Assembly: GCA_035452965.1 (NCBI GenBank)
Contig: DAOTCE010000004.1
Location: 192,666 to 256,665 of the forward strand
Source of the DNA: Minisyncoccota bacterium
GTDB taxonomy: Bacteria; Verrucomicrobiota; Verrucomicrobiia; Limisphaerales; UBA8199
Length of the DNA: 64,000 bases
Reading direction: 5' to 3'
Part shown: piece by piece, positions 20,802-57,668 of the stretch
Numbering within the stretch: position 1 is the first letter of the stretch
Layout: each line of letters starts with the position of its first letter
Translations under genes and position numbers: made by a program
Notes under the pieces: model-generated
Databases searched by the model: none
What the model saw: only the letters and a program-made list of their open reading frames with translations
Told to the model about the DNA's origin: nothing

Positions 20802-20857
20802 CCGGACGCAAGCCATTTCCGGCAAAGCCTGACAACCGGCGCAAGCGCATCAATGGC

Positions 20858-34297: not shown

Positions 34298-37200
34298 ATG
34301 AAGAGAACTTTCTGTTCCATTGGGTTAACGATTGCGTTTGTCGTTGCATCTGTTGCGACCGGCCTTGCTGCTGCAACCATCGGCAACACCACCGACGGCA
34401 CTTCGACCGACACACTCTGGTATGAGGGCGCCTATATCAATGCCTGCCGATTTCGGGCTGCGTCGAACATGACCGTGGTCACGATGCACGCCAAAGTCTC
34501 CGCCATAACCGGCCGCTACAAATGCGCGATCTACTCTGACAGCAGCAGTCAGCCCAACCGCCTTTTGCGGGCCACGAGCGAGGTAACCAACCCGACCACC
34601 GATGGCTGGAAGACTTTCACGCTCACCGCCCCGCAGGCGCTGACCAACGGCAGCTATTACTGGCTGGCCATCTGGTCGGACAGCAGCAGCGCCAAGGCCT
34701 ACTACTCGAGCAGCACCAGCGGCACGCTCCGCTGGGCACAGCGCAATTACGGCACCTGGCCCGATCCCATCGTCACGACCGGCGGGAGCACCTCCTCGTA
34801 TTGCATCTATGCCATGGGCTCGGTGGCACCCGTGGCGCCGACGGTCGCCATCCTGAGTCCCGCGAACAACGGGACCGTAGGCACCAATTTCACGATCACC
34901 GCCACCGCCACGGATAGCGACGGCACCGTCACCAACGTGTCCTTCTACGACGGCGTTACCTTGCTTGGCAGCGACACCAGCAGCCCCTACAGCTACGTCT
35001 GGAACAACGCGCCACTGGGCGCGCATGCGCTCAGGGCCGTGGCTCGGGACAACAGCGGCCTGGCGACCACGTCCGCCGTGGTCAACGTCACTATCACCGC
35101 GCTGAACGTGGTGTCCTTTGCGGAAACCTTTGACAGTTACGCCAACGGGACGGTGATCACCAATATCGGCGGGGGCGGCTTCTGGACCTCCGGCGCGAAC
35201 ACCGTGGTCAGCGGCGGCGGCGTGAACGGCTCGGGTGGGCTTGGCACCAGCAGTCTGATTTTCAATTGGAAGGCCCAGACGTTCCAGTGGAGCGCGCTGG
35301 ACATTGGCACAAGGGTGGCAATTTCCCTGGACTTGCAGACCAGCGGCACCGGCAAGTTTGACGACGATCGCGTCGGGTGGACCATCACCCCGGACGCCAG
35401 CACCAGCACGGGCAGCCAATTGGCCCTCCAACTGGACAACACGACGGAGGGAGGCATGGTGTTGTATCACAACCTCACGCGAACTCCCGTTCTCAACGCC
35501 CTGAGCGGCATCAAGAACAGCACCTGGTATCGTTTCAAAGTCGAGTTCACCAAGCTGTCCGCCACCAGCGCGAAGATCGTGGGCACGCTCACCGAACTGG
35601 ATGCCTCAGGCAACCCGGACGGCACCCCGTATGTTGGCACCGTTGCCGACACCAGCATGTTTGCCAATCCCCCCAGCACGGCGCTCTTCACCTCCGCGCA
35701 GCAGTGCCCGACCTTCAAGAACCACAACCCCGCGACCGGCAATGCGGACAATGCGACTTTCACCATCACCCAGCCTGGCCCGCAGCCGCCGATTGTGACC
35801 ATCACCAGCCCGACCGCCAATGAAACCGTGTTCACCAGTTTCACAATCAACGCCACCGCCACGGATGACGGGTCGGTGACCAACGTGGGCTTCTACGCGG
35901 ACGGCATCCTGCTGGGCAATGACACCACCTCCTCGTATAGCTGGACGTGGAACGGCGCTCCGGTGGGCAATCATACGCTGACGGCAGTCGCCGTGGACGA
36001 CACGGGGCTCTCGGCCACCTCGGCAGTGGTGAACGTCATCGTCAGCACCAACCTGGCGCCCAACGCGCCAGTCGTAGTCACGCCGGCCGACGGCGCCATG
36101 GGCGTGGCGACCAACGCCACGCTGACCGTGTCGGTCTCGGACCCCAATGGCGACCCCATGTCGGTCCTGTTCTACGCCCGCTCGCTGAACGGCACCGCCC
36201 CGGCGCCGGACTTCACGATCGTGGCGCTGCCGGATACGCAGTTCTACTCGGAGAGCTACCCGGCGATCTTCCAATCCGAGATTGACTGGATCGTCAACAA
36301 CCACCAGGAGCGCAACATTGTGTATGTGACGGGCCTTGGGGATGTGGTGAACGTCGGCACGTCCGACACGCAGTTTCGGAACGCCACCAATGCCCTGTAC
36401 CGCCTGGAGAATCCAGTCACGACGGGTCTGCCGGAAGGCATTCCCTACGGCGTTCCGGTGGGCAATCACGACTCGCCCTATACCCTGTTCAACAACTACT
36501 TCGGGGTCAGTCATTTCAGCGGCCGCAGCTATTACGGCGGCAGCTACACCACCGGCTACCAGAATCATTACGACCTCTTCAGCGCGGGCGGGATGGATTT
36601 CATCGTGCTGTCACTCGAGTATAACGCCGGCGCCAACTCGGCGATCATGAGCTGGGCCAATGGCGTTCTGCAGGCCAACGCCGACCGCCGCGCTATCGTG
36701 GTGACTCACTCGCTGCTCCAGGCGGGCTATAACTGGCCAACACCTGCCGCCTGGTCCACGGATGGCGGCACCACGATCTTCCCGGCGCTGGCCAACAACC
36801 CCAACGTCTTCCTGATGCTGTGCGGCCATAACCATGGCCAGGGGCGGCGGCACGAGGCGGTGGGCGACCGCTTCATTGATGTCCTCCTGTCCGATTACCA
36901 GAGCGACGTCAACGGCGGCAACGGCTTCGTTCGCCTGATGGAGTTTTCGCCCAGCAACAACGTCATCCGCGTCACGACCTACTCGCCCTACACCCTCGGC
37001 TCCAAGACGGACGGCGACAACCAGTTTACCCTCGAGTACGCCATGGCCTCCGCACCGGCGCCGTTCGTGTGCATCGGAACCAATATGGCGGTGGCCTCGG
37101 GCACGCAGACCAGCCTGGCGTGGCCAAACCTCGCCCCGGGCACCATCTATGAGTGGTATGCCGTGGCCAGCGATGCCACCACGTCCGCGACGAGCGCAAC

Positions 37201-40200
37201 CAGCCAGTTCCTCACCGCAGGGGGGCCGCCGGCGGTCGCCCTCAGTCTGAGTGGCAGCCCGATGGCGGAAGCGGCCGGCGTGGCGACCGTGACTGCGACG
37301 CTGTCAGAGATCAGCACGGATATGGTGACCGTGAACCTGGAGTTCTCGGGAACCGCAACCCTGACGGACGACTATACGCGCTCCGGCGCCAGCATCTCGA
37401 TACCCGCGGGGAGCCTAACCGGCTCCATCACGCTCACCGCGGTGCAGGACAGCATTTATGAGAACCCGGACGAGACCATTGTGGTGGACATCAGCACGGT
37501 GGTGAACGCAAAGGAGAACGGCACCCAGCAGGTGACGGCCACCATCGCCGGCGATGATCCGGTCCCGCCAGTAATCACCCTGTTGGACCAGAATTTCGAC
37601 TCCCTGGGTTCTGCCGGCACAACCATGCCGACCGGCTGGACCGCGGGCTATCTGGGCACCGCGAGCAGCCAGAACCGCTTGACCATGTCGCCCTACGCCG
37701 GAAACGGCCTGAACATAACCGCCTTGCCCCTGGTGGTGAGCGACGGCAGCGCCCTGCCCAGTCCCAACGTAGGGACGATCTTCAACATCGGCTCGGCGGG
37801 CAGTTCCGAGCGCGCCCTGGGCAGCTACCCCAGAACGACCCCCTCTGGCGACCATGTCCTGCAGGTTGCCATTGTGAACACCACGGGCGGTTCCCTGACC
37901 GCGATCAACGTGAGCTACGTGGGCGAGCAATGGCGCCAGTCCGAGGGCGCCTCAGAAAGCGGCCTCGAAATGCTGAGGTTCCTGGCCAGCACAACCTCTC
38001 CCACTGCCGGGTTTAGCTATTTCCCCGATCTCGATTTCACGGCCCCGAAGCAACTGGTGGCGGATTGGCCGGTTGGCGTTTTGGACGGCAATCTTGCGGC
38101 CAATCGCGCCGTCATCACCGGCACCATTACATTTGCGAGCCCGGTTCCGGCCGGTGGCACGTTCTATCTGCGCTGGCACGATTGGAATGACGACAGCACC
38201 TCCGACCACTTCCTGGCCATTGACGACCTCGTCGTCACCAGCATCTACATGGTGGGGCCCGCGGTGACGCTCAGTCTGTCGGGCAGCCCGATGGCGGAAG
38301 CCGGCGGCGTGGCGACAGTGACCGCGACGCTGTCGCAGGCGAGCACAAATGTTGTGAAGGTGAACCTGGCCTTTGCGGGGACCGCGACGCTGACGGATGA
38401 CTACACGCGCTCCGGCACCAGCATTTCGATACCGGCGGGAAGCTTAACGGGCTCAATCACGCTCACCGCGGTGCAGGACGGCGTTCACGAGACCCCGGAC
38501 GAGACCATTGTGGTGGACATCAGTTCGGTGGACAACGGAACGGAGATCGGCACCCAGCAGGTGACCGCCACTATCGCGGACGATGATGCGGCAGCGGCCG
38601 GTTTCACGGCCTACAACGATTGCTCGAAGGGGGACGGCACCAATCCCGCCAACACCACCGAGTACCCGGGCAACGGATCCTACTCGGGCCTGCTCAAGGA
38701 CTTCGACACGGGCGCGACGCTGCCGGTCACCCTCACCCTCGTCACCAACCGGATCACCTACGATGGCACCGGCGGTCCGATGCCCAACGCGGGCACCGAC
38801 GCCCACACCACGTTCAATGGCAAAGTCGTCTTCGACAATGTCATCTGGTACACCGCCACCAGCAACGGCTTCTGGATGGATGCGGTCTTTACCGGCCTGG
38901 ACCCGGCCAAGGAATACGAGTTCGCCACCTCGGCCAACCGGGGTGGATCCGGCTCGGACTACGCCAGCCGATACAGCAAGTTCACGATTACCGACATGGA
39001 CTCGGCCGAGAACGGCAGCACGCCGGGCGTCACGGTCAACTCGGACACGTCGGTGACCTTCTGCACCGGGATGAACACGGTCAACGGGTATGTGGCGCGC
39101 TGGACCAAGATCAAGTGCGGCAGCGACGGCGACTTCACCGTGCGGGTGGAAGACGGCGGGGGCGTGGGCAAGGGCTACGCGTTTGACGGCATCATGCTGC
39201 GGGAGACCGGCACAGCGGGTCCCCAGCAGCCGACGGTCGCCATCACGAGTCCCGTGAACAACGCAACCCTGAGCACCAACTTCACGATCACCGCCAGCGC
39301 CGCCGACAGCGACGGCACGGTCACCAATGTATACTTCTACAATGGCAGCACCTTGCTGGGCAGCGACAGCAGCAGTCCCTACACCTTCACCTGGAGCGCC
39401 GCGCCGCTGGGCGCCCATGCGCTGAAGGCCGTGGCTTGGGATAACACCGGCCTGGCGGGCACGTCCGCCGTGGTGAACATCACCGTCACGGCGCCCGGCA
39501 CGGTGGCCGCCGTGGAGACCTTCGACAGTTACGCCAACGGGTTAATCATCACCAATATCGGCGGGGGCGGCGTCTGGACCAGCGGCACGAACATCATCCT
39601 CAGCACTGGCGGCGTGAATGGGTCGGCCGGTATCAGCTTCGGCACCCGGGTGTTCAACTGGAAGGCGCAAACCTTCCAGTGGAGCGCGCTGCCGGATGGC
39701 ACCAAGGTGGCGGTCTCCCTGGACTTGCAGACCAGCGCCACCGGCAAGTTTGACGATGATCGCGCCGGGTGGACCATCACCCCGGACACCACCGGCAGCA
39801 CCGGCAGCCAGTTGGCGCTCCAACTGGATAACACCACCGAAGGGGGCATGGTGTTCTATCATAACAGCACCAGAACCCCCGTGCTCAATGCCCTGAGCGG
39901 CATCAAGAACAGCACCTGGTATCGCTTCAACGTCGAGTTCACCAAGCTGGGCCTTACCAATGCGAGCATCGTGGGCACGCTCACCGAACTCGACAGTTCA
40001 GGCAACCCGACCGGCACGCCGTACGTCGGCACGATTACCAACACCGGGACGTTTGCCAATCGTCCCAGCAGCGCGCTTTTCACGGCCACCCAGCAATGTC
40101 CGTCCTTCAAAAACCACAGCCCCGCCGCCGGCAATGCGGACAATGCTACCTTTACTATCACCCCGCCGGAGCCCGAGCCGCCGGCAACGCCGGAGTATGT

Positions 40201-42136
40201 CATCGTGATCAGCGTGGATGGCATGGGCTCGGCCTACGTCACGCCGCTCCTGACGCCGGGCCTGGCCAATGAATTGACGACCTTCAAGCGGTTCCAGACC
40301 GAAGGGTCCGGCACGCTTAATGCCCGGACGGATTACAACTACGCCATCACGCTTCCGAATCATGTGTGCATGATGACGTGCCGCGGCGTCAGCGGCGCTT
40401 CCGGGCATAACTGGACCGGCAACAGCGATCCGGCGCCCACCGCCACGCTGGCGAACAACAAGGGATCCTACGTTGCCAGCGGCTGGGACGTCGCCCACGA
40501 CAATGCACTGCGCACGGGCATTTGGTCAGGCAAATCGAAGTTCAGCCTGTTCCAGCAGTCGTACAGCGCCACCAGCGGCGCTCCGGACATCACGGGAGAT
40601 GACAACGGCCGGGACAAGATTGATTACGACAAGGTCGGCAACCTTTCGGCCGCGGCTTTGACGGACGATCTGATCAGCCAAATGACTGCCAACCCGTTCC
40701 ATTTCCTGTTGCTCCATTTCCACGAGCCGGATACGGCCGGCCACAGTTCGGGCTGGTCAACCAACCCCACGAGCGCCTACGCCGCGTCGTTGAAGGCTGT
40801 GGACACGCAAATCGCCAGGGTCATCGAAATGGTGGAAAACAGCCCCACGCTGCAAGGCAAGACCGCGATCATCGTGACCGCCGACCACGGTGGCCATGGC
40901 ACGACCCACGGCGATATGTCGAATCCTCTGGATTACACCATTCCGTTCTACGTCTGGGGCCCGGGCGTAACTGCGGGAGGCGACCTGTATGCCATGAATC
41001 CGGCCAGCCGCACTTCTCCGGGAACGTCCAATCCTCCCTACACGGGCGGCCAGCCAATTCGTAACGGCGATGCGGCCAATCTTGCGCTGAGCCTGCTGGG
41101 CTTGGAAGCGATTCCGGGGTCAACGATCAACAGCTCCCAGGACCTACTGGTCAACAGCACGCCGGTCATTATCACTGTCACTGCCAACAGTGGCCAGTCC
41201 AAGGTCTTCGGCGCGGCGGACCCGACGCTCACTTATATCTGCTCCGATCCGGAAGTCAGCTTCACCGGCGCCTTGGGCCGGGCGGCAGGCGAGAACGTCG
41301 GGAGCTATGCCATCAACCAGGGCAACCTGTCCCCCGTGGGTGGCTATGTGGTCAATTTTGTCTCCGCCGACTTCGCCATCACGGCCAAGCCGGTCACCGT
41401 CACCGCCAACAGCGGGCAGAGCAAAGTATTCGGGGCGCCTGACCCGGTGTTGACCTACACTTCCTCGGAACTTGGGGTCAGCTTTGCCGGCGCCCTGGGC
41501 CGTGCGGCGGGTGAGAACGCCGGCAGCTATGCCATCAATCAGGGCAGCCTGTCCGCTGGGGCCAACTATGCGATCACCTTTGTCCCCGCCAACTTCGCCA
41601 TCACGACCGCCTACTCGACCACGGCGATCAGTTCGTCGCTCAATCCGTCCCGCGTCGGATCGAACGTGACCTTCACCGTCACCGTCGGCCCGGTGGCCCC
41701 GGCCACCTCGACTCCCACTGGCACCGTGCAGTTCTTTGCCAACTCCGTCGCCTTGGGCAGCCCAGTCGCTCTCACGGGTGGCACGGCCACTCTTGACACG
41801 GCGCTGTTGCCGACGGGTGACAACGACATCATCGCCTTCTATCTGGGCGACGGGAACTACCTGGGCAGCACCGACGGCCTGGTGCAGGTGGTCACCGCCG
41901 CGGTGGAAACGCCAGTAGTGGTGAGCATCGTGCCCAACAGCGATGGCTCGGTAACCGTGACGTGTGCCGGCACGCCCGGGGCGGAATATCTCGTCCTGAG
42001 CTCGACCAACATCACCTCGCCCGCTTCGTGGGTGAATGTCTCCACCAATACCGCCGGCGTAGACGGCCAGTGGACTTACACGGACAACACCAAGTTGAAT
42101 TACACGCAGCGGTTCTTCCGAGCCGCCAAACCGTAA
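34298..42136 (+). CDS. giant secreted mosaic protein A (2612 aa): metallophosphoesterase + NPP-type phosphodiesterase + Calx-beta x2 + MBG x2 + Ig-like domains + unassigned modules U(x2), V, W
   Basis: Signal peptide. Metallophosphoesterase motifs LPDTQ, GLGDVV, GNHD and CGHNHG at about 36209-37042. Alkaline-phosphatase-superfamily motifs ISVDGMG, TLPNH, HFHEPDTAGHSSG and TADHGGHG at about 40190-41122. Calx-beta segments of the form TATLTDDYTR..ITLTAVQD. MBG segments of the form TVTANSGQSKVFG..GSYAINQG. Confidence 0.9.
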   Translation: MKRTFCSIGLTIAFVVASVATGLAAATIGNTTDGTSTDTLWYEGAYINACRFRAASNMTVVTMHAKVSAITGRYKCAIYSDSSSQPNRLLRATSEVTNPTTDGWKTFTLTAPQALTNGSYYWLAIWSDSSSAKAYYSSSTSGTLRWAQRNYGTWPDPIVTTGGSTSSYCIYAMGSVAPVAPTVAILSPANNGTVGTNFTITATATDSDGTVTNVSFYDGVTLLGSDTSSPYSYVWNNAPLGAHALRAVARDNSGLATTSAVVNVTITALNVVSFAETFDSYANGTVITNIGGGGFWTSGANTVVSGGGVNGSGGLGTSSLIFNWKAQTFQWSALDIGTRVAISLDLQTSGTGKFDDDRVGWTITPDASTSTGSQLALQLDNTTEGGMVLYHNLTRTPVLNALSGIKNSTWYRFKVEFTKLSATSAKIVGTLTELDASGNPDGTPYVGTVADTSMFANPPSTALFTSAQQCPTFKNHNPATGNADNATFTITQPGPQPPIVTITSPTANETVFTSFTINATATDDGSVTNVGFYADGILLGNDTTSSYSWTWNGAPVGNHTLTAVAVDDTGLSATSAVVNVIVSTNLAPNAPVVVTPADGAMGVATNATLTVSVSDPNGDPMSVLFYARSLNGTAPAPDFTIVALPDTQFYSESYPAIFQSEIDWIVNNHQERNIVYVTGLGDVVNVGTSDTQFRNATNALYRLENPVTTGLPEGIPYGVPVGNHDSPYTLFNNYFGVSHFSGRSYYGGSYTTGYQNHYDLFSAGGMDFIVLSLEYNAGANSAIMSWANGVLQANADRRAIVVTHSLLQAGYNWPTPAAWSTDGGTTIFPALANNPNVFLMLCGHNHGQGRRHEAVGDRFIDVLLSDYQSDVNGGNGFVRLMEFSPSNNVIRVTTYSPYTLGSKTDGDNQFTLEYAMASAPAPFVCIGTNMAVASGTQTSLAWPNLAPGTIYEWYAVASDATTSATSATSQFLTAGGPPAVALSLSGSPMAEAAGVATVTATLSEISTDMVTVNLEFSGTATLTDDYTRSGASISIPAGSLTGSITLTAVQDSIYENPDETIVVDISTVVNAKENGTQQVTATIAGDDPVPPVITLLDQNFDSLGSAGTTMPTGWTAGYLGTASSQNRLTMSPYAGNGLNITALPLVVSDGSALPSPNVGTIFNIGSAGSSERALGSYPRTTPSGDHVLQVAIVNTTGGSLTAINVSYVGEQWRQSEGASESGLEMLRFLASTTSPTAGFSYFPDLDFTAPKQLVADWPVGVLDGNLAANRAVITGTITFASPVPAGGTFYLRWHDWNDDSTSDHFLAIDDLVVTSIYMVGPAVTLSLSGSPMAEAGGVATVTATLSQASTNVVKVNLAFAGTATLTDDYTRSGTSISIPAGSLTGSITLTAVQDGVHETPDETIVVDISSVDNGTEIGTQQVTATIADDDAAAAGFTAYNDCSKGDGTNPANTTEYPGNGSYSGLLKDFDTGATLPVTLTLVTNRITYDGTGGPMPNAGTDAHTTFNGKVVFDNVIWYTATSNGFWMDAVFTGLDPAKEYEFATSANRGGSGSDYASRYSKFTITDMDSAENGSTPGVTVNSDTSVTFCTGMNTVNGYVARWTKIKCGSDGDFTVRVEDGGGVGKGYAFDGIMLRETGTAGPQQPTVAITSPVNNATLSTNFTITASAADSDGTVTNVYFYNGSTLLGSDSSSPYTFTWSAAPLGAHALKAVAWDNTGLAGTSAVVNITVTAPGTVAAVETFDSYANGLIITNIGGGGVWTSGTNIILSTGGVNGSAGISFGTRVFNWKAQTFQWSALPDGTKVAVSLDLQTSATGKFDDDRAGWTITPDTTGSTGSQLALQLDNTTEGGMVFYHNSTRTPVLNALSGIKNSTWYRFNVEFTKLGLTNASIVGTLTELDSSGNPTGTPYVGTITNTGTFANRPSSALFTATQQCPSFKNHSPAAGNADNATFTITPPEPEPPATPEYVIVISVDGMGSAYVTPLLTPGLANELTTFKRFQTEGSGTLNARTDYNYAITLPNHVCMMTCRGVSGASGHNWTGNSDPAPTATLANNKGSYVASGWDVAHDNALRTGIWSGKSKFSLFQQSYSATSGAPDITGDDNGRDKIDYDKVGNLSAAALTDDLISQMTANPFHFLLLHFHEPDTAGHSSGWSTNPTSAYAASLKAVDTQIARVIEMVENSPTLQGKTAIIVTADHGGHGTTHGDMSNPLDYTIPFYVWGPGVTAGGDLYAMNPASRTSPGTSNPPYTGGQPIRNGDAANLALSLLGLEAIPGSTINSSQDLLVNSTPVIITVTANSGQSKVFGAADPTLTYICSDPEVSFTGALGRAAGENVGSYAINQGNLSPVGGYVVNFVSADFAITAKPVTVTANSGQSKVFGAPDPVLTYTSSELGVSFAGALGRAAGENAGSYAINQGSLSAGANYAITFVPANFAITTAYSTTAISSSLNPSRVGSNVTFTVTVGPVAPATSTPTGTVQFFANSVALGSPVALTGGTATLDTALLPTGDNDIIAFYLGDGNYLGSTDGLVQVVTAAVETPVVVSIVPNSDGSVTVTCAGTPGAEYLVLSSTNITSPASWVNVSTNTAGVDGQWTYTDNTKLNYTQRFFRAAKP
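38600..39205 (+). repeat. 606-bp tract >99% identical to 48307-48912 (module W)
   Basis: Aligned by eye at offset 9707. I find 4 mismatches (38641, 38644, 39151, 39181), all synonymous. 38645-39150 is a perfect 506-nt run. Confidence 0.85.
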
Positions 42137-42151
42137 ACCGTTTGCCAAGCA

Positions 42152-42181
42152 CAGGGCAGGCCGGCAACCCGGCCTGCCCTG
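42152..42181 (+). terminator. 13-bp perfect GC-rich hairpin after gene A (no U-tract)
   Basis: cagggcaggccgg-caac-ccggcctgccctg, 16 nt after the stop. Confidence 0.35.
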
Positions 42182-42360
42182 CTGCCGCAATACAGAATAG
42201 CAATAGGGAAGAGGCTAGTGAAGATACGCTCATCGAGCGATACAATGCCTTGTGGAACGCCGGACGCGTGTCCACGGCCTTATTGGCACGCCACCACACT
42301 TCCCCCCCCGGCTATGCCGGGCGCAGTCAAACGTCGGTAGAACTCCTGGAACATAAATCT

Positions 42361-45300
42361 ATGAAAAGAACAACTCCTCTGTGCCTGATCACATTACTCT
42401 TCGTGCTGAGTGGCGCGCCTGGCGGCCTGGCGGCGACTGTCACGGAGACATTCGACAGCTACGCCAACGGGACGCTGATCACCGCGGTCGGCGGCAGCGG
42501 TGTCTGGACCATCGGCGCGAATACCGTGGTCAACCCTGGCGGCGTGAACGGAACGGCAGGTCTTGGCTATGGCAGTGCGATCTTCAATTGGAAAGGCCAG
42601 TCCTTCCAGTGGAGCGCGCTGGCGGTCGGCACCAAGGTGGCGATCTCCCTGGACTTCCAGTCGAGCACGACCGGCAAGTTTGACGACGATCGCGTCGGGT
42701 GGACCATCACCCCGGACGCCAGCACCAGCACGGGCAGCCAATTGGCCCTCCAACTGGACAACACGTCGGAGGGAGGCATGGTGTTTTATCACAACTCCAC
42801 GCGAACCCCTGTGCTCAACGCCCTGAGCGGCATCAAGAACAGCACCTGGTATCGCTTCAGCGTCGAATACACCAAACTCACCGCCACCAGCGCGACCATC
42901 GTGGGAACGCTGACCGAGCTGGATGCCTCCGGGAACCCGACCGGCACCCCGTATGTTGGCACCATTGCCGACACCAGCACCTTTGCCAATCCCCCCAGCA
43001 CGTCGCTCTTCACCTCCGCGCAGCAGTGCCCGTCCTACAAGAACCACAATGTCACGGCCGGCCGCGGCAATGTTGACAATGCCTCGATCACGATCACACC
43101 CCCTGGTCCGCAACCGGCAACAATCAGCATCACCAGCCCCGCCAATGACAGCACGATGACGGGTGAATGGCTGGCCATTGCGGCGACGGCCACGCCCTCC
43201 ACCGGCGCCTCCATCACAAACGTGGAATTCTATTCGGGCACCACCAAGATCGGCGAGGATGCCACAGAACCGTTCACGATGAACTGGTGCGGGGTTGCCC
43301 CGGCCGCGTATTCGTTGACGGCGGTCGTGCTGGACAACTCCGGCGCGAGCGTCACGTCCTCGGCGGTCAACGTAACGGTGAGCGCACCGGCCACCGCCGG
43401 GTCATTGCAGTTCGACGGAAGCAACGATTACGTCACGTTCGGCACCGCACCGGAGCTGGGCCTCTCCACGTTCACGATTGAGTGCTGGTTTAAACGCCAG
43501 GGCACCGGCCAGATCACCACCACCGGATCGGGCGGCGTCACCAACGCCGTGCCGTTGGTCACCAAAGGCCGCGGTGAAGCCGAGAACAGTAATGCGGACA
43601 TGAATTGGTTCCTCGGGATTTCGACCAGCGGCAATGTGATCGCGGCCGACTTTGAAGAGGGCGTCGGCGGGACCACGCCGGGGCTGAACCATCCCGTTTG
43701 GGGAAACACCCCGGTCATAAACAATGTCTGGTACCATGCCGCCGCCACCTACGACGGCGCAAGCTGGACGCTCTACCTGAACGGGAACGTGGAAACCAAC
43801 GTTGCGGTCAACCAGCCGCCCCGCTCGGACAGCATTCAGCATGCGGCGCTGGCCAGCGCCATGAACTCGACCGGAGCGGCGGCGGGCTACTTCCAAGGCC
43901 TGCTGGACGAGGTGCGCGTCTGGAACTATGCGCGCAGCGCCGCGGAGATTGGCGACAACTACCGCCTGCAAATCACCAATCAGAACGGGCTGGTCGCGCG
44001 CTGGGCGCTGAACGAGGCGGATGGCACCGTCGCCCGCGACGCAAATTGCGGCGGGCTCAACGGCGACCTCCGGAACGGCCCCGTGTGGTCCACCGACAGT
44101 TTCGACGCCAATAACCCGCCGATGGTCCTTCTCACCACTCCCGCCGCCGGAAGCGTGTTTGCCGTCGGTTCGAGCGTGACGCTGGACGCCACGGCGATGG
44201 ACGAAGGGTCGGTCGCCGAAGTGGCTTTCTACGTGGATGACGAGTTGGTCGGCAGCGACGACACCAGCCCTTATAGCGCGACCTGGCCCAGCGCGGAACT
44301 CGGGTTCCACGCCCTGACGGCGGTGGCACGGGATAATACCGGGTTGTGGGCCACGTCGGCCGTGGTGAACGTGAGCGTGGTGGCCGAACCGGGGTTTGGC
44401 GCGGTGTCCTTCGACGGGGCAAATGACCACATCGCCATGGGTGCGGCACCGGAGCTGGGCGCGAGCACCTTCACGCTGGAATGCTGGATGCGGATTGACG
44501 GCACGGGCGTTACGGCCAGCAGCGGCAATGGCGGAGTGAACGTCGCCCCGCTGATTGCCAAGGGGCGCGGCGAGGGCGATGCCAGCAATCTTGACTGCAA
44601 CTACATCTTCGGCGTGCAGTCGAACAACCGGCTGGCGGCGGACTTCGAGGACATGCAGAGCGGCCTCAACCACCCGATCGTTGGAACAGCGGCCCTGAGC
44701 GCCGGTGTCTGGCATCATTGTGCCGTCACCTATGACGGCAGTTGGTGGCGCATCTATGTTGACGGCGCGGCCGATGCGAGTCTGCAGGTCACAGGCGGCG
44801 GGAACGTCCAGGTGCCCCGTTACGACAGCATCCAGCACTTTGCCCTGGGCACGGCCATGACCTCCACCGGCGCGGCGGCGGGGTACTTCAAGGGGGTCAT
44901 GGACGAGGTGCGCGTCTGGAATTACGCGCGCACGCAGGCGGAGATCAGCAGCAGCATGTATAGTGAGATCGCGGAGGCAGCGGGGCTGATCGGACGTTGG
45001 AGCCTGAATGAGACGAACGGCACCACGGCCAGCAATACAGGATCGAGCGGGGTGAACGGCACGCTGGTCAACGGGGCGGTCTGGGCGACGGGCTATCCGC
45101 TGCAGCCGGCGGCGAACACGCCGCCGACGGTCGCGATCACCAGCCCGACCAACGGGGCGACGGTCTTCACCAGCTTCTCGATCAGCGCCACCGCCACGGA
45201 TTTCGGCGCGGTTAGCCAGGTGGACTTTTATGCCGACGACATCACCCTGCTGGGCAGTGATGCCAGCAGCCCTTACACCTTCGATTGGAGCGGCGCGCCG

Positions 45301-48300
45301 GAGGGCGCTCACACGCTGACGGCTGTTGCGTGGGACGACGAAGGGCTGTCCGCCACCTCGGCCGTGGTGAACATCACGGTCAGCACCAACCTGCCGCCCA
45401 GCGCGCCGGTCGTGGTGGCGCCGATCAACGGCGCTGTGGGTGTGGCGGCCGACGCCACGCTGACCGTCGCGGTCTCGGATCCCAACAACGACCCGATGAC
45501 GGTGGTGTTCTACGGCCGCCCGCTGGACGGCCCGGCTCCGGGCGCGGACTTCACGTTCGTGGCGCTGCCGGACACGCAGTTCTACATGTCGAGCCTGAAT
45601 GGCGGTTCGCCCGCGATTGCCACCAACCAGGTGGCCTGGGTGATCGCCAACCGCGTCAGCCGCAACATTCAATACCTGGCGCAGTTGGGCGATTGTGTGC
45701 AGAACGGCGAAAACGGCGGGAACGATGCCGAATGGCGCAACGCGACCAACGCGTTTTACCGGCTGGAAGATCCGCTGACCACGTTCCTCCCGGAGGGAGT
45801 TCCCTACGGTGTGGCGGTGGGCAATCACGATCAGACGCCCGCCTACGACCCCAACGGCACGACCACGTTCTATAACCAGTACTTCGGCATCAACCACTTC
45901 CAGGGGTACAGCTACTACGGCGGCCATTACGGCACGAACAACGACAATCACTACGACCTGTTTAGCGCCAGCGGCATGGACTTCATCGTCATTTACCTGG
46001 AGTATGATGCGGCCATGACGACGGCCTCGCCCGTGCTCGCCTGGGCCAACGGCGTGTTGGAGACTCACAGCAACCGCCGCGCAATCGTGGTCAGTCACTA
46101 TATCGTCAACCCCGGTTTCAACGCCACTTTCAGCGCGCAGGGGCAGGCGATATACAATGGGCTGAAAGGCAACACCAACTTGTTCCTTATGCTCTGCGGC
46201 CATGAAAGCCCCGAGGAAGGTCAACGCACGGACGTCTACCAGGGCCGCGCGGTGTGGTCCATCATGAGCGATTACCAAAGCCTCACTGCCGGCGGCAACG
46301 GCTGGATGCGGCTCTACGAGTTTTCGCCGTCCAACAACGTGATCCACGCAAAGACCTATTCGCCGTGGCTGGACCAGTATAAGACCGCTTCGAGCAATCA
46401 GTTCGACATTCCTTATGTGATGTCGGCCACGAACCCGTTTGTGGTCATTGGCACCAGCACAGGCGTGCCTTCGGGTGGTAACGCTTCGATCGTCTGGACC
46501 AACCTCGACCTGGAAACGGTTTATGAGTGGTATGCCGTGGCCAGCGATGCCAGCCTGTCCGTGTCGGGCGCGACCAGCCAGTTTACCACGCGCCCGCCCT
46601 TAAGGGTCACGCTCAGTCTGGCGGGCAGCCCGATGGCGGAAGCCGCCGGCGAGGCGACGGTGACCGCGACGCTGTCAGAGATCAGCGCAAATGAAGTAAC
46701 GGTGAACCTGGAGTTTTCGGGGACCGCGACGCTGACGGATGACTATACGCGCTCCGGGGCCAGCATCTCGATACCCGCGGGGAACTTAACCGGCTCGATC
46801 ACGCTCAAGGCGGTGCAGGACACTCTTTACGAGGTTCCGGCCGAGACCATAGTGGTGGATATCGGCACGGTGGACAACGCACTCGAGAACGGCACCCAGC
46901 AGGTGACGGCCACCATTACCGATGATGACCCGGTCCCACCGGACGTCACGCTCAGTCTGGCGGGCAGCCCGATGGCGGAAGCGGCCGGCGAGGCGACGGT
47001 GACCGCGACGCTGTCAGGGACCAGCCTGAATGCGGTGACGGTGAACCTGGAGTTTTCGGGGACCGCAACACTGACGGATGACTATACGCGCTCCGGCGCC
47101 AGCATCTCGATACCCGCGGGGAGCCTAACCGGCTCCATCACGCTCACCGCGGTGCAAGACGCCATTTACGAGAACCCGGACGAGACTATTGTGGTGGACA
47201 TCAGCACGGTGTTGAACGCCACCGAGAGTGGCGCCCAGCAGGTGACGGCCACCATTTCCGATGACGATCCGATCCCGCCAGTCATGACCCTGTTGGACCA
47301 AAATTTTGATGTCCTGGGTTCTGCCGGCACCACTATGCCGAACGATTGGACGGCCGGCTATCTGGGCGTCGTGAGCACCCAAAACCGTTTGACCATGTCA
47401 CCCTACGCCGGAAACGGCCTGAACCTAACCGCCTTGCCCTTGGTGGTGAGCGACGGCAGCGCTTTTCCCAATCCCAACGTAGGAACGATCTTCAACATCG
47501 GCTCGGCGGGCAGTTCCGAACGCGCCCTGGGCAGCTACCCCAGAACGACCCCCTCCGGCGACCATGTCCTGCAGGTTGCCATTGTGAATACCACGGGCGG
47601 TTCCCTGAGCTCGATCAACGTGAGCTACGTGGGCGAGCAATGGCGCCAGTCCGAGGGCGCCTCAGATAGCGGCCCTGAAATGCTGAGGTTCCTGGTCAGC
47701 ACAACCTCTCCCACGGACGGGTTTGCTTATTACTCCGATCTCAATTTCACGGCCCCGAAGCAACTGGTGGCGGATTGGCCGGTCGGCGGTTTGGACGGCA
47801 ATTTGGCGGCCAATCGCGCGGCCGTCGCCGGCACCATTACGTTTGCGAGCCCGGTTCCGCCGGGCGGCACCTTCTACCTGCGCTGGCACGATTGGAATGA
47901 CGACAGCACCTCCGACCACTACCTGGCCATTGACGACCTCATCGTGCGCAGCACTTACCTGTCGGGGCCCACGGTGACGCTTGATTTGGCGGGCAGCCCG
48001 ATGGCGGAAGACGGCGGCGTGGCGACAGTGACCGCGACGCTGTCGAAGACCAGCGCCTATGAGGTAGTGGTAAACCTGGCCTTTGCGGGGACCGCAACGC
48101 TGACGGATGACTACACGCGCTCCGGCGCCAGCATCTCGATACCGGCGGGGAGCTTAACGGGCTCGATCACGCTCACGGCTGTGGCGGACGCCGTCTACGA
48201 GAGCACGGCCGAGACCATTGTGGTGGACATCACTACGGTGGACAACGCAATCGAGAGCGGCACCCAGCAGGTGACGGCCACTATCACCGATGATCCGGCC

Positions 48301-49899
48301 GCCGCCGGTTTCACGGCCTACAACGATTGCTCGAAGGGGGACGGCACGAACCCCGCCAACACCACCGAGTACCCGGGCAACGGATCCTACTCGGGCCTGC
48401 TCAAGGACTTCGACACGGGCGCGACGCTGCCGGTCACCCTCACCCTCGTCACCAACCGGATCACCTACGATGGCACCGGCGGTCCGATGCCCAACGCGGG
48501 CACCGACGCCCACACCACGTTCAATGGCAAAGTCGTCTTCGACAATGTCATCTGGTACACCGCCACCAGCAACGGCTTCTGGATGGATGCGGTCTTTACC
48601 GGCCTGGACCCGGCCAAGGAATACGAGTTCGCCACCTCGGCCAACCGGGGTGGATCCGGCTCGGACTACGCCAGCCGATACAGCAAGTTCACGATTACCG
48701 ACATGGACTCGGCCGAGAACGGCAGCACGCCGGGCGTCACGGTCAACTCGGACACGTCGGTGACCTTCTGCACCGGGATGAACACGGTCAACGGGTATGT
48801 GGCGCGCTGGACCAAGATCAAGTGCGGCAGCGACGGCGACTTCACCGTGCGGGTGGAGGACGGCGGGGGCGTGGGCAAGGGCTACGCCTTTGACGGCATC
48901 ATGCTGCGGGAGTCGGTTCCCCAGACGCAAACGGTGATCGTCACCGCAGACAGCGGCCAGTCTAAGGTCTTCGGCGAGGCTGACCCAGTGCTGACTTATG
49001 TCTCCTCGATTCCGGGCGTAACCTTCACCGGCGCCTTGAGCCGCGCGGCGGGCGAGAATGTCGGCAGTTATGCGATCAACCAGGGCGACCTGTCGGCCGG
49101 GGAAAACTACGTGATCACTTTCGTCCCCGCCGACTTCACCATCACGGCCAAGCCGATCACTGTCACCGCCGACAGCGGCCAGAGCAAAGTCTTTGGGGCG
49201 TCTGATCCGGTGTTGACCTACGTTTCCTCGGACCTCGGGGCGAGCTTTACCGGCGCCTTGGGCCGCGCGGCGGGCGAGGATGTCGGCAGCTATGCGATCA
49301 ACCAGGGCGACCTGTCCGCCGGGGCCAATTACGCGATCACGTTTGTCCCCGCTGACTTCGCGATCACGGCCGCCTCCTCGACCACGGCGATCAGTTCGTC
49401 GCTCAATCCGTCCGACGCCGGCTCAAACGTGACCTTCACCGTCACGGTTGGCCCGGTTGCGCCGGCCAGCACCACGCCCACCGGCAACGTGCAATTCCTG
49501 ACCAATGACGTGGCTATGGGAAGCCCGGTTGCTCTGGCCGGTGGCACCGTTACATTCGACACGGCGCTGTTGCCCACGGGCACCAACACCGTCACCGCCA
49601 ATTACCTGGGTGATGCCAACTACCTCGGCAGCACCGACAACCTGTTGCAGGTGGTCAAGGTCGTTGCCGAACCGCCCTCGGTGGTGAGCATCCTGCCGAA
49701 CGGCGATGGCTCGGTGACCGTGACGTTTGCCGGCACGCCGGGTGCCGCTTACCTGGTCCTGGATTCGACGAGCATCGTCTCGCCGGTTTCGTGGGTGAAG
49801 GTGTCCACCAATACGGCCGGTCCGGACGGCCGGTGGACGTACACGGATAACACCGTGCCGAATTACACACAGCGATTCTTCCGCGCCGCTAAACCGTAA
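42361..49899 (+). CDS. giant secreted mosaic protein B (2512 aa): U + LamG x2 + metallophosphoesterase + Calx-beta x3 + V + W + MBG x2 + Ig-like domains
   Basis: I moved the start to MKRTTPLCLITLLFVLSGAPGGLAA (ATG at 42361, in frame with the track ORF at 41962). LamG_3-type segments (LQFDGSNDYVTF..LDEVRVWNYARS) occur twice. Metallophosphoesterase motifs LPDTQ, QLGDCV, GNHD and CGHES. Confidence 0.9.
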   Translation: MKRTTPLCLITLLFVLSGAPGGLAATVTETFDSYANGTLITAVGGSGVWTIGANTVVNPGGVNGTAGLGYGSAIFNWKGQSFQWSALAVGTKVAISLDFQSSTTGKFDDDRVGWTITPDASTSTGSQLALQLDNTSEGGMVFYHNSTRTPVLNALSGIKNSTWYRFSVEYTKLTATSATIVGTLTELDASGNPTGTPYVGTIADTSTFANPPSTSLFTSAQQCPSYKNHNVTAGRGNVDNASITITPPGPQPATISITSPANDSTMTGEWLAIAATATPSTGASITNVEFYSGTTKIGEDATEPFTMNWCGVAPAAYSLTAVVLDNSGASVTSSAVNVTVSAPATAGSLQFDGSNDYVTFGTAPELGLSTFTIECWFKRQGTGQITTTGSGGVTNAVPLVTKGRGEAENSNADMNWFLGISTSGNVIAADFEEGVGGTTPGLNHPVWGNTPVINNVWYHAAATYDGASWTLYLNGNVETNVAVNQPPRSDSIQHAALASAMNSTGAAAGYFQGLLDEVRVWNYARSAAEIGDNYRLQITNQNGLVARWALNEADGTVARDANCGGLNGDLRNGPVWSTDSFDANNPPMVLLTTPAAGSVFAVGSSVTLDATAMDEGSVAEVAFYVDDELVGSDDTSPYSATWPSAELGFHALTAVARDNTGLWATSAVVNVSVVAEPGFGAVSFDGANDHIAMGAAPELGASTFTLECWMRIDGTGVTASSGNGGVNVAPLIAKGRGEGDASNLDCNYIFGVQSNNRLAADFEDMQSGLNHPIVGTAALSAGVWHHCAVTYDGSWWRIYVDGAADASLQVTGGGNVQVPRYDSIQHFALGTAMTSTGAAAGYFKGVMDEVRVWNYARTQAEISSSMYSEIAEAAGLIGRWSLNETNGTTASNTGSSGVNGTLVNGAVWATGYPLQPAANTPPTVAITSPTNGATVFTSFSISATATDFGAVSQVDFYADDITLLGSDASSPYTFDWSGAPEGAHTLTAVAWDDEGLSATSAVVNITVSTNLPPSAPVVVAPINGAVGVAADATLTVAVSDPNNDPMTVVFYGRPLDGPAPGADFTFVALPDTQFYMSSLNGGSPAIATNQVAWVIANRVSRNIQYLAQLGDCVQNGENGGNDAEWRNATNAFYRLEDPLTTFLPEGVPYGVAVGNHDQTPAYDPNGTTTFYNQYFGINHFQGYSYYGGHYGTNNDNHYDLFSASGMDFIVIYLEYDAAMTTASPVLAWANGVLETHSNRRAIVVSHYIVNPGFNATFSAQGQAIYNGLKGNTNLFLMLCGHESPEEGQRTDVYQGRAVWSIMSDYQSLTAGGNGWMRLYEFSPSNNVIHAKTYSPWLDQYKTASSNQFDIPYVMSATNPFVVIGTSTGVPSGGNASIVWTNLDLETVYEWYAVASDASLSVSGATSQFTTRPPLRVTLSLAGSPMAEAAGEATVTATLSEISANEVTVNLEFSGTATLTDDYTRSGASISIPAGNLTGSITLKAVQDTLYEVPAETIVVDIGTVDNALENGTQQVTATITDDDPVPPDVTLSLAGSPMAEAAGEATVTATLSGTSLNAVTVNLEFSGTATLTDDYTRSGASISIPAGSLTGSITLTAVQDAIYENPDETIVVDISTVLNATESGAQQVTATISDDDPIPPVMTLLDQNFDVLGSAGTTMPNDWTAGYLGVVSTQNRLTMSPYAGNGLNLTALPLVVSDGSAFPNPNVGTIFNIGSAGSSERALGSYPRTTPSGDHVLQVAIVNTTGGSLSSINVSYVGEQWRQSEGASDSGPEMLRFLVSTTSPTDGFAYYSDLNFTAPKQLVADWPVGGLDGNLAANRAAVAGTITFASPVPPGGTFYLRWHDWNDDSTSDHYLAIDDLIVRSTYLSGPTVTLDLAGSPMAEDGGVATVTATLSKTSAYEVVVNLAFAGTATLTDDYTRSGASISIPAGSLTGSITLTAVADAVYESTAETIVVDITTVDNAIESGTQQVTATITDDPAAAGFTAYNDCSKGDGTNPANTTEYPGNGSYSGLLKDFDTGATLPVTLTLVTNRITYDGTGGPMPNAGTDAHTTFNGKVVFDNVIWYTATSNGFWMDAVFTGLDPAKEYEFATSANRGGSGSDYASRYSKFTITDMDSAENGSTPGVTVNSDTSVTFCTGMNTVNGYVARWTKIKCGSDGDFTVRVEDGGGVGKGYAFDGIMLRESVPQTQTVIVTADSGQSKVFGEADPVLTYVSSIPGVTFTGALSRAAGENVGSYAINQGDLSAGENYVITFVPADFTITAKPITVTADSGQSKVFGASDPVLTYVSSDLGASFTGALGRAAGEDVGSYAINQGDLSAGANYAITFVPADFAITAASSTTAISSSLNPSDAGSNVTFTVTVGPVAPASTTPTGNVQFLTNDVAMGSPVALAGGTVTFDTALLPTGTNTVTANYLGDANYLGSTDNLLQVVKVVAEPPSVVSILPNGDGSVTVTFAGTPGAAYLVLDSTSIVSPVSWVKVSTNTAGPDGRWTYTDNTVPNYTQRFFRAAKP
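48307..48912 (+). repeat. 606-bp tract >99% identical to 38600-39205 (module W)
   Basis: See the partner feature. The identical out-of-frame ORFs in the track (38583/48290 and 38620/48327) show the same thing. Confidence 0.85.
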
Positions 49900-49919
49900 T
49901 CAGTCTGGCAATCACACAG

Positions 49920-49960
49920 CAGGCCGGGAGACGCCTCTGGCATCCCGGCCTGTCCTGTTT
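49920..49960 (+). terminator. hairpin plus T-rich tail after gene B
   Basis: caggccggga-13 nt-tcccggcctg followed by tcctgttt. Confidence 0.5.
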
Positions 49961-50331
49961 AATGCGCAGGGGCGCATCGCGGCGACCATGGCGGGCGGGG
50001 GGCATGGTTCCGCCTGCCGATGCGACGGGGCGCCAGTTTATCCGAAGCAGGCCTTCAGCACCCAGGGAGATGCGTTGGCTTTCTGTCCCATTTGCTGCTC
50101 TCGGGCAGGGCACAGTCCAACAACTAGACAGGCACCGTGGCGCCGGTTACGCTCTCGCTCTCGCATTCTTAGGCGCGGATTTGGGCCGCCTGCTCCTGGC
50201 ACTTGTTGCACAACCTATTGCCCTTGCGGCACTTGCGGCGAATACACCCCCCGGCAACACCTGCGTCTCAGCGGTAAGTCCCGTCAATACAGTAGGTTGC
50301 GACGAAAGCCTCCCGGATGTCAAGGCTGTAT

Positions 50332-50398
50332 CCACGGTGTGGATACGGTGAGGATACGGCGCGTATACGGTGAGACTCCCATGGGAACCGCCACCGGG
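50332..50398. repeat. degenerate copy 3 of the palindromic element
   Basis: ccacggtgtgg...ctcccatgggaaccgccaccggg. The right arm and both flanks (gctgtat.. / ..tttcccgcc) resemble copy 2. The left inner arm is replaced by three ~11-nt direct repeats (gatacggtgag, gatacggcgcg, tatacggtgag). Confidence 0.55.
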
Positions 50399-50532
50399 TT
50401 TCCCGCCAACAACTCCTTCGCGAGCGGACGCTCGTCTTGCCGAACTCAGGGCAAGCGCTATTCAGAATTACGCATGGCACAACATCTGCAATCATTGAAT
50501 TTGTAGGTTCCCTGCCTACATCCTCCTGAGTG

Positions 50533-52373: not shown

Positions 52374-52504
52374 GGCGGCTTTTCTGCATCTGGTTTAGAT
52401 TGCGCTTGCGGGAACCCTGGCAAGTAGCGTTAAAGGCTTCACTTTTCCCAGGTTCGATCTCCGTCCGCCTTTACATCCCGGGAATCCTGGTGAATGCTTT
52501 TCCG

Positions 52505-57613: not shown

Positions 57614-57668
57614 TTGAGAATTTGTGAAGCCTAATAGCCGACCCTCAGTGAGGGCAAGTTGATTTGAT

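Follow-up and report, generated by a model that had tools for sequence, protein, structure and literature searches.

Two adjacent genes for giant secreted mosaic proteins

The stretch of DNA analysed here (the window) is 64,000 nt of contig DAOTCE010000004.1 from a Minisyncoccota bacterium, placed by GTDB in the Verrucomicrobiota. It carries two co-oriented and intact genes, here called A and B, for very large secreted proteins in which predicted phosphoesterase domains are embedded among adhesin-type and lectin-type modules. Both proteins start with a signal peptide, and the genes are separated by a spacer of 224 nt. The open reading frame (ORF) of B is listed from a GTG at 41962; the ATG at 42361 was taken as the start, as the signal peptide begins there (MKRTTPLCLITLLF...), which gives a protein of 2512 aa and the 224-nt gap to A. 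The GC content of the window is about 62% and uniform throughout. The full module map, in nucleotide coordinates, was built from local profile hidden Markov models (HMMs) and seed searches and is listed below together with the Pfam matches; MPE stands for metallophosphoesterase and NPP for nucleotide pyrophosphatase/phosphodiesterase.

34298..42136, + strand: gene A, 2612 aa from the ORF list and its translation; signal peptide MKRTFCSIGLTIAFVVASVATGLAA at 34298-34372
34373..34837, + strand: N-terminal beta-rich domain of A, weakly DUF4082-like (Pfam PF13313, E 3.6e-4, under the gathering score); duplicated in the related locus L001
34838..35038, + strand: Big_7 Ig domain of A, with more copies at 35789-35983 and 39230-39430 (Pfam PF17957, E 3e-47, three stretches)
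35069..35806, + strand: module U of A, copy 1 (local HMM, E 1e-104), without Pfam match
36062..36205, + strand: small Ig-like domain of A preceding the MPE domain, with weak Big_7/Big_5 matches; part of an Ig-MPE-fn3 cassette
36197..37087, + strand: MPE domain of A, LPDTQ subfamily, with D646 and Q648 (LPDTQ), D682 (GD), N723-H724-D725 (GNHD), H804 and H844 (GH)
37043..37252, + strand: fn3/Ig_7-like domain of A after the MPE domain (Pfam Ig_7, E 4.5e-4), kept at this place in homologues
37265..37546, + strand: Calx-beta domain of A, copy 1, with copy 2 at 38294-38575 (Pfam PF03160)
37571..38263, + strand: module V of A, a predicted jelly-roll beta-sandwich with invariant YPRTTPSGD and RWHDWND..T.DH..IDD
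38591..39205, + strand: module W of A, a predicted beta-sandwich with motifs F(T/V)AYNDC, GTDA, T.ANR and GYVARW
39464..40180, + strand: module U of A, copy 2 (local HMM, E 1e-98), directly N-terminal to the NPP-type domain
40166..41161, + strand: NPP/alkaline-phosphatase-superfamily domain of A (Pfam PF01663, E 7e-19)
41171..41596, + strand: two MBG_2 domains of A (Pfam PF18676, E 3e-22)
41630..41890, + strand: Big_3_5 Ig-like domain of A (Pfam PF16640)
41894..42133, + strand: C-terminal module of A, about 80 aa, ending QRFFRAAKP, no Pfam match
42361..49899, + strand: gene B, 2512 aa from its translation; signal peptide MKRTTPLCLITLLFVLSGAPGGLAA
42400..43137, + strand: module U at the mature N-terminus of B (local HMM, E 3e-105)
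43414..44949, + strand: two Laminin_G_3 domains of B, at 43414-43950 and 44413-44949 (Pfam PF13385, E 1.4e-41), with a Big_7/BiPBP_C Ig domain between them
45403..46620, + strand: Ig-MPE-fn3 cassette of B, MPE at 45538-46461, with LPDTQ at residue 1069, GD at 1109, GNHD at 1154, H at 1245 and GH(ES) at 1279
46636..48285, + strand: two Calx-beta domains, V (47281-47970) and a further Calx-beta domain of B (Pfam and local HMMs)
48298..48912, + strand: module W of B (local HMM)
48934..49896, + strand: two MBG_2 domains, Big_3_5 and the C-terminal module (49666-49896) of B, the latter ending QRFFRAAKP (Pfam and local HMMs)

From its N-terminus, A thus reads signal peptide, DUF4082-like domain, Big_7, U, Big_7, Ig, MPE, fn3, Calx-beta, V, Calx-beta, W, Big_7, U, NPP-type domain, two MBG, Big_3_5 and C-terminal module. 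The order in B is signal peptide, U, Big_7, LamG_3, Big_7, LamG_3, Big_7, Ig, MPE, fn3, two Calx-beta, V, Calx-beta, W, two MBG, Big_3_5 and C-terminal module. Pfam assigned three Big_7, Calx-beta, two MBG_2 and Big_3_5 to both proteins, the Phosphodiest/Metalloenzyme match to A only and the two Laminin_G_3 stretches to B only. An NCBIfam scan of A and B returned weak phosphoglycerate-mutase and TafC matches and otherwise no family. The first-pass annotation, made from the sequence alone, had described a tandem pair with signal peptides and this order of modules, two LamG_3 domains in B and three module types that it could not name; translation, Pfam and the local HMMs confirmed the pair, its spacing and its module order, PF13385 matched B alone, and U, V and W have neither a Pfam nor an NCBIfam match. 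Where modules recur, the copies are related to different degrees: the two U copies of A are 76-77% identical to each other, V of B is 86-87% identical to V of A, and the tail of B from MBG_2 to the C-terminal module is 77-81% identical to that of A.

The locus is full of internal repeats (five Calx-beta, three U, two V and two W copies), and the W copies of the two genes have a perfect run of 506 nt in common (38645-39150 = 48352-48857), between flanks that are 85-90% identical. These two features, together with the fact that assemblies disagree precisely inside W, speak for the possibility that the genes or their mosaic structure are repeat-driven assembly chimeras, which the first-pass annotation had named as an outcome that would refute it. 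We consider this explanation very improbable. Exact-sequence look-ups of A and B gave no match, and look-ups via the flanking genes gave the same genes, differing essentially inside W: genes of 2612 and 2512 aa, in the same order, are present in at least 14 independent metagenome assemblies, and the seven loci that were fetched match the window exactly for 21.4 kb or 20.5 kb, apart from 6-12 positions inside W and, in L021 only, position 49294 in B. Both frames are open over 7.5-7.8 kb, and a relative about 80-85% identical carries the same kind of tandem pair. We conclude that A and B as whole genes are not chimeras and that the fine sequence of W alone is doubtful. The 506-nt identity is probably a consensus collapse or a strain-level gene conversion, because two JGI assemblies of this organism show 24 differences in 609 nt between the W copies (38597-39205 and 48304-48912 in the window; about 96% identity), and because in ENA NODE_152 the two copies are nearly identical to each other and homogenised to an allele other than the window's. 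The similarity of the W copies (at least 96%) exceeds that of their flanks, which suggests gene conversion. At about 20834-20888 of the window, other assemblies of the same organism are split between the end of a 374-kb contig and the start of a 108-110-kb contig, which overlap by 55 nt; this graph junction is bridged in the assembly that contains the window.

Catalytic residues of the MPE and NPP-type domains

The MPE metal-ligand motifs that the first-pass annotation had ascribed as a full set to both A and B (LPDTQ, GD, GNHD and GH) are present. The MPE segment of A has 714 homologues, many of which carry a precomputed PF00149 match and are named metallophosphoesterase by the source databases; the best 120 of the 714 are 48-69% identical, most of them 300-500 aa long and many with signal-peptide-like N-termini. 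Alignment A1, of 27 sequences with A and B among them, has invariant columns at D16 and Q18 (LPDTQ), G51-D52 (GD), G92-N93-H94-D95 (GNHD), H174 and G213-H214, and also at R221, D236, Q238 and R249. Motifs I-III are thus conserved in 27/27 sequences, with GD and GNHD aligning with SbcD. The Ig-MPE-fn3 cassette is common to standalone homologues (P0001, P0002, P0041, P0060 and P0103). The genomic context of two further standalone homologues (P0026 and P0068) consists of housekeeping genes and was uninformative.

Among solved structures, the MPE segment of A gave marginal matches only, to SbcD and to 2nxf, and the family profile had a single PDB match, zebrafish ADPRibase-Mn 2nxf (E 0.0045), with motifs IV-V in register and H174 and G213-H214 aligned. 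Compared profile to profile with a canonical MPE family, the match was weak but in register (E 7e-4, probability 26%). The ADPRibase-Mn family has D[V/I]Q as motif I; in the docking model of the authors who studied it, Gln27 coordinates metal 1, and the Q27H mutant is still active with an efficiency lowered about 11-13-fold (PMC4334965). Since the Gln of this motif binds metal 1, LPDTQ is compatible with catalysis.

For the NPP-type domain, PF01663 matched A with 62.7-69.1 bits against a cut-off of 23, and an exhaustive search found 647 representative homologous proteins of 350-4068 aa at E<1e-30. Eight columns are invariant in an alignment of 27 sequences, namely D20, T64, H68, D191, H195, D242, H243 and H250. 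In A these are D1974 (VDG), T2018 (the nucleophile, in TLPNH), H2022, D2145 and H2149 (PDTAGH), D2196 and H2197 (DHG), and H2204. The family profile matched the Xanthomonas NPP 2gsn with an E-value of 1e-15, aligning the iSiDGLR, TFPNH, DeaGH and sDHG columns. The earlier assignment of an NPP/alkaline-phosphatase-type domain with a Thr nucleophile to A is thereby upheld.

Going by what is known of the two enzyme families, the chemistry would involve a dinuclear metal centre in the MPE domain and a phospho-threonine intermediate in the NPP-type domain, and the conserved residues support this.

Modules U, V and W and their phosphoesterase partners

The modules surrounding these domains belong to families of their own. 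U has 29 homologues, mostly proteins of 270 aa made of a signal peptide, U and a PEP-CTERM tail, and among the 120 matches listed for a combined V and W query, 45 match V and 75 match W. A typical member of any of the three families is a protein of 250-300 aa with a signal peptide, the module and a PEP-CTERM tail; PF07589 (PEP-CTERM) was found in 6/19 homologues of U, 30/37 of V and 31/45 of W. Profile-profile comparisons of U with V, U with W and V with W detected no kinship beyond these common tails. When single sequences were searched against solved structures, U gave no match, V matched one sialidase (E 0.024) and W gave compositional nanobody matches only.

The AlphaFold2 model of V is all-beta (pLDDT 89, pTM 0.90). 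Foldseek placed it closest to the cleaved-adhesin domain K3 of Kgp (E 3e-7, probability 1.0), followed by the Eph ligand-binding domain, CBM4, CBM27 and the MAM domain of meprin. TM-scores to the cleaved-adhesin and MAM jelly rolls are 0.46-0.56, and 37/37 members of the family have no Pfam match. V is thus modelled as a jelly-roll binding module, and its RWHDWND..T.DH..IDD stretch would most simply be a loop of the type that binds Ca in such folds. The idea that V, with its invariant His/Asp-rich motif, is a new enzyme was dropped, its structural neighbours being jelly-roll binding modules. W is also modelled as all-beta (pLDDT 91, pTM 0.90), and its invariant residues include N9, D10, T69, D70, R117, R127 and W171. 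It lacks the Pfam match to a carbohydrate-binding module (CBM) that a CBM6/CBM35-type module would be expected to give, and showed only sub-threshold fn3/Pur_ac_phosph_N motif matches. Membership of Pur_ac_phosph_N was considered for W and rejected, the scores being 15-20 bits against a cut-off of 30 over half of the model. As a lead only, we note that PF16656 (purple acid phosphatase N-terminal domain) occurs sub-threshold in 15/45 W members (alignment A2), over the second half of the model and with an fn3-like G-L-x-P-x-x-x-Y.

A metagenome collection was scanned for W alone, and the 78 loci that came back were searched with the module HMMs. W shares an ORF with a phosphoesterase domain in 33/78 loci and has one on a neighbouring ORF in 8 more (41/78). 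The fused partner in the 33 loci is mostly the LPDTQ-type MPE and sometimes a second MPE family or an NPP; many of these proteins are 1,200-3,760 aa long and have up to five W copies. The order of the parts varies, with W-Big_7-NPP in P0201 and NPP-Big_7-W in P0196, and four proteins (P0218, P0226, P0236 and P0246) combine the second, canonical MPE family with a C-terminal W. V behaves similarly: in five of the nine genome loci found with its profile (L002, L003, L007, L008 and L010) it is fused or adjacent to an NPP-type domain. U adjoins an NPP or MPE domain in A, P0135, P0149, P0152, L024, L025 and L088. The loci are a non-random set lacking a formal control; even so, chance would hardly explain an association of this extent between W, V and U and three unrelated catalytic folds.

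Unfused and differently paired versions were also seen. In the Pirellula metagenome-assembled genome (MAG) PNKX01000016 (L008), the segment 5863-8098 holds a small V-type PEP-CTERM gene and, directly behind it in the same orientation, an NPP-type gene that stands alone. L084 and L085 (Ga0180432_10009657 and Ga0180431_10007092) carry a tandem of MPE2-W-W-W-...-W (1533 aa) and LPDTQ-type MPE-W-W-W-W (1392 aa), which pairs other proteins than A and B do and parallels them.

A first scan of a genome collection with the whole of A as query found no relative, and the source-database names of cluster members were uninformative. Giant mosaics of the same module set are encoded in other Verrucomicrobiota MAGs, as U-V-V-W-W-V-NPP in L002, MPE...V-NPP in L003 and MPE-V-NPP-U-V-W-V-W in L010; the genomes with V come almost entirely from Verrucomicrobiota MAGs, with the one Pirellula MAG in addition. 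The closest relative, L001, is the locus with about 80-85% nucleotide identity mentioned above; its tandem pair A'/B' is frameshift-broken and keeps NPP and MPE on separate proteins. The first-pass annotation had singled out the presence of two phosphoesterase folds on one chain, and this arrangement does recur, in L003 and L010, but L001 indicates that it is not a fixed requirement.

These data bear on the possibility that A and B serve mainly as giant adhesins or form a surface coat, for attachment to particles, algae or cells, with enzyme-like domains that bind or are accessory. About 75-85% of each chain consists of Ig, Calx-beta, MBG, LamG and jelly-roll modules, the best structural match of V is a gingipain adhesin domain, and U, V and W also occur in small PEP-CTERM surface proteins that have no enzyme domain. 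However, both enzyme families, with the copies in A and B among them, keep all catalytic and metal-ligand residues unchanged, and loss of catalysis would relax them. That W, V and U pair repeatedly and specifically with three phosphoesterase families unrelated to one another likewise argues for catalysis, and we regard a mainly adhesive role as unlikely.

Export, proposed function and comparison with known systems

The Sec-type signal peptides of A and B, which are of the cleavable kind, can be read directly from their sequences, and PF07589 is absent from both proteins in the Pfam scan. Their C-termini are instead formed by the QRFFRAAKP module, which belongs to no Pfam or NCBIfam family. A similar ending, ...(R/S)F(F/Y)R(A/V)xxxx-stop, is found on four large secreted proteins of the window (41894-42133, 49666-49896, ~29640-29883 and ~54830-55072), that is, on A, on B, on a giant protein with RCC1 and Ig domains (24760-29886) and on the protein encoded at 52400-55075. 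It is also found on the mosaics of L002, L003, L005 and L010 and on the homologues P0041 and P0197. In P0197 the module follows W, where other homologues carry PEP-CTERM. As it holds the position of PEP-CTERM and recurs on other large secreted proteins, we infer that it is a candidate sorting or anchor domain of Verrucomicrobiota; the ...RF(F/Y)R... ending may be a sorting signal that has gone unrecognised in this phylum.

On balance, we favour reading A and B as modular phosphoesterases that are exported by Sec, are probably retained at the cell surface and act on extracellular organophosphate, and we give this reading somewhat more confidence than doubt. W, V, U and LamG would keep the enzymes attached to an extracellular phosphate-ester substrate, probably a polymeric and glycan-rich one, or to the cell's own surface, with the Ig, Calx-beta and MBG modules as spacers and the ...RFFRAAKP module retaining the protein at the cell envelope. 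The catalytic domains would then release phosphate or dephosphorylated products for uptake. With its MPE and NPP-type domains, A could combine diester and monoester or anhydride steps on one scaffold, and B would add LamG lectin-type targeting. This agrees in part with the surface system for extracellular nucleic acid or organophosphate that had been proposed at first. The proteins are secreted, the catalytic residues are kept, adhesin-type and lectin-type modules surround them, and the theme of extracellular phosphoester hydrolysis gains from W, V and U being joined to phosphoesterases again and again in other proteins; nucleic acid as the substrate found no direct support, and surface display is suggested by the position of the C-terminal module only.

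As substrates, phosphorylated or phosphodiester-linked glycans together with general dissolved organic phosphorus appear about equally likely as nucleotides or nucleic acid. A more specific proposal is that the pair is a surface system for binding and degrading extracellular DNA or RNA, with the MPE and NPP-type domains as nuclease or phosphodiesterase and nucleotidase. The closest solved relatives of the NPP-type domain are the Xanthomonas NPP and the ENPPs, and enzymes of the NPP family typically cleave nucleotide phosphodiesters. OB-fold and lamin-tail domains are features of some extracellular nucleases; P0218 and P0226 combine W and MPE with a weak OB-fold match (tRNA_anti), and P0248 combines W with a lamin-tail domain. 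But the OB matches lie below the Pfam cut-off (26.6 and 22.5 bits against 27), and Pfam and NCBIfam found no nuclease domain (SNase, EEP or ExeM/NucH type), OB-fold or HhH domain in A or B, which also lack a lamin-tail domain. V and W resemble carbohydrate- or protein-binding sandwiches, and B has LamG_3 lectin-type domains. The residue after the nucleophile Thr also speaks against nucleic acid: it is Leu in the consensus (T-L-P-N-H), where 2gsn and ENPP5 have T-F-P-N-H and T-Y-P-N-H, and in NPPs, going by the structure of the Xanthomonas enzyme, this aromatic residue (Phe or Tyr) stacks the nucleotide base. We therefore think a system dedicated to nucleic acid improbable.

Several observations weigh against A and B being surface-retained phosphoesterases of the kind we favour. 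The MPE segment of A alone does not match PF00149 even at E<=1, so that its assignment to the superfamily relies on homologues 50-60% identical to it, many of which carry PF00149. The second His of GHxH is not conserved, being present in A (GHNH, H846), absent from B (GHES) and variable in the family. The NPP-type domain covers positions 1-224 of the 342 in the PF01663 profile and leaves the C-terminal third unmatched. Its sixth metal ligand would be the invariant H2204 (H250 in the alignment), seven residues after the DH pair, in a region that does not align with NPP structures or with Pfam; in NPPs the last conserved His lies about 100 residues beyond the DH pair. By its C-terminal third, the position of this His and the Leu after Thr, the domain appears to be a divergent branch. 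W has no significant solved relative, its best Foldseek E-value being 5.6e-3 with none at or below 1e-3, with TM-scores of at most 0.55 and a weak CBM6/35/61-like topology. Module content is fluid among close relatives, because A' of L001 lacks the MPE-Calx-V-Calx block and B' lacks V, and no fixed machine is implied. Finally, no phosphate-regulon or phosphate-uptake genes were found near A and B or in the other neighbourhoods checked; around the V and NPP loci L005 and L008 these contain a sulfatase, a peptidase and a GH36-like gene.

The neighbours of A and B are genes for DUF1559/N-methyl pseudopilin-like proteins, the RCC1/Ig giant, sulfatases and housekeeping proteins. Together with the genomes in which V occurs, they suggest a member of the PVC superphylum, most likely of the Verrucomicrobiota. 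The giant (24760-29886) is a secreted protein of 1708 aa with 23 RCC1 repeats and several Ig I-set domains, and directly downstream of it are the DUF1559/N-methyl genes at 29897-30709 (+) and 30746-31546 (-). Sulfatase-family genes lie a few kb downstream of B at 55547-57754 (-) and 57669-59624 (+), and a neutral/alkaline ceramidase-like gene is present at 22820-24160 (-); the sulfatase and ceramidase-like genes fit a polymer-degrading lifestyle. Public assemblies call a further ORF of 172 aa at 49988-50506, which is Arg/Cys/Gly-rich, low-complexity-looking and without family match, and is probably not a real gene. Directly after the stop codons of A and B lie two hairpins that are alike in sequence:

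42149..42186, + strand: GC-rich hairpin directly after the stop of A, -38 kcal/mol, z -6.1, CAGGGCAGGCCGG...CCGGCCTGCCCTG, without U-tract
49919..49955, + strand: GC-rich hairpin directly after the stop of B, -41 kcal/mol, z -2.7, CAGCAGGCCGGGA...TCCCGGCCTGTCCTG, without clear U-tract

The first of these may act as a terminator or attenuator between the two genes. An Rfam scan of 30000-52000 gave no match, and a scan for sigma-70 promoters and terminators did not exceed the shuffled expectation.

The recovery of phosphorus, and also of carbon and nitrogen, by bacteria from dissolved and particulate organic matter is governed by extracellular phosphoesterases, of which the known ones (PhoA, PhoD, PhoX, PafA, NPPs and 5'-nucleotidases) are mostly single-domain. 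The locus studied here and about 40 related loci follow a different design, in which two or three unrelated phosphoesterase folds are repeatedly combined with three unnamed beta-sandwich families in very large surface proteins. Tentatively, we suggest that W, and to a lesser degree V and U, are undescribed targeting modules dedicated to phosphoesterases, as CBMs are on glycoside hydrolases, in which the invariant Arg, Tyr, Trp and Asp of W might bind phosphate esters or anionic polymers. On that view, A and B would count among widespread, unstudied giant surface enzymes (to about 3,700 aa, with up to five W) of Verrucomicrobiota and other environmental bacteria that mineralise polymeric organic phosphorus. 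This idea is less likely than the enzymatic reading given above. Should W, V and U prove to be substrate-targeting modules, they would reveal the substrates of the enzymes and give three new domain families for thousands of metagenomic proteins.

The NPP-type domain resembles the NPPs (Xanthomonas NPP 2gsn and ENPP1-7) and NPP-like alkaline phosphatases (PhoK) in its PF01663 match, its T-x-P-N-H Thr nucleophile, and the Asp and Asp/His metal-ligand pairs that align with 2gsn; it differs from NPPs in matching two thirds of the Pfam model, in having Leu and not an aromatic residue after the nucleophile, and in sitting inside multidomain proteins of 350-4068 aa. The MPE domain shares with ADPRibase-Mn (2nxf; human and rat ADP-ribose/CDP-alcohol diphosphatase) the superfamily and a motif I of the form D-x-Q, not D-x-H. 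This likeness is marginal and limited to part of the domain, the motif IV-V region; ADPRibase-Mn enzymes are small, cytosolic and found in vertebrates and plants, unlike the secreted bacterial A/B family, which has no conserved second His of GHxH and has its own invariant R221, D236, Q238 and R249. Its substrate preference cannot be transferred to the MPE domains of A and B.

The putative targeting modules would follow the logic of CBMs on glycoside hydrolases and of the cleaved-adhesin sandwiches, in that a catalytic domain is combined with targeting sandwiches. The model of V matches Kgp K1-K3, CBM4, CBM27 and meprin MAM (E 3e-7 to 1e-4), but V and W have TM-scores of 0.4-0.6 and identities of 8-18% to these families, which also include the Eph jelly rolls, and no Pfam matches, and their partner enzymes are phosphoesterases and not glycosidases or proteases. 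Small homologues of U, V and W are proteins of the PEP-CTERM/exosortase type; A and B differ from these in ending with the QRFFRAAKP module.

A literature search found no published description of such proteins; a paper on an Akkermansia MPE was set aside, as it concerns a different, Tyr-containing enzyme. The nearest systems as a whole are cell-surface nucleotidases and nucleases such as Bacillus subtilis YhcR and wall-anchored enzymes of the UshA/CpdB type, which are secreted and surface-retained and combine an MPE-type domain with binding domains and a C-terminal sorting element (general knowledge and PMC10454023). A and B lack their nuclease or 5'-nucleotidase C-terminal domain, OB fold and LPXTG, are 3-5 times larger, and have another MPE subfamily, other accessory modules and another C-terminal module. 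Secreted phosphoesterases with several domains have thus been described before; the novelty lies in the present architecture, in three module families without a name, in the strong linkage of W with phosphoesterases and in the C-terminal module that these proteins have in common.

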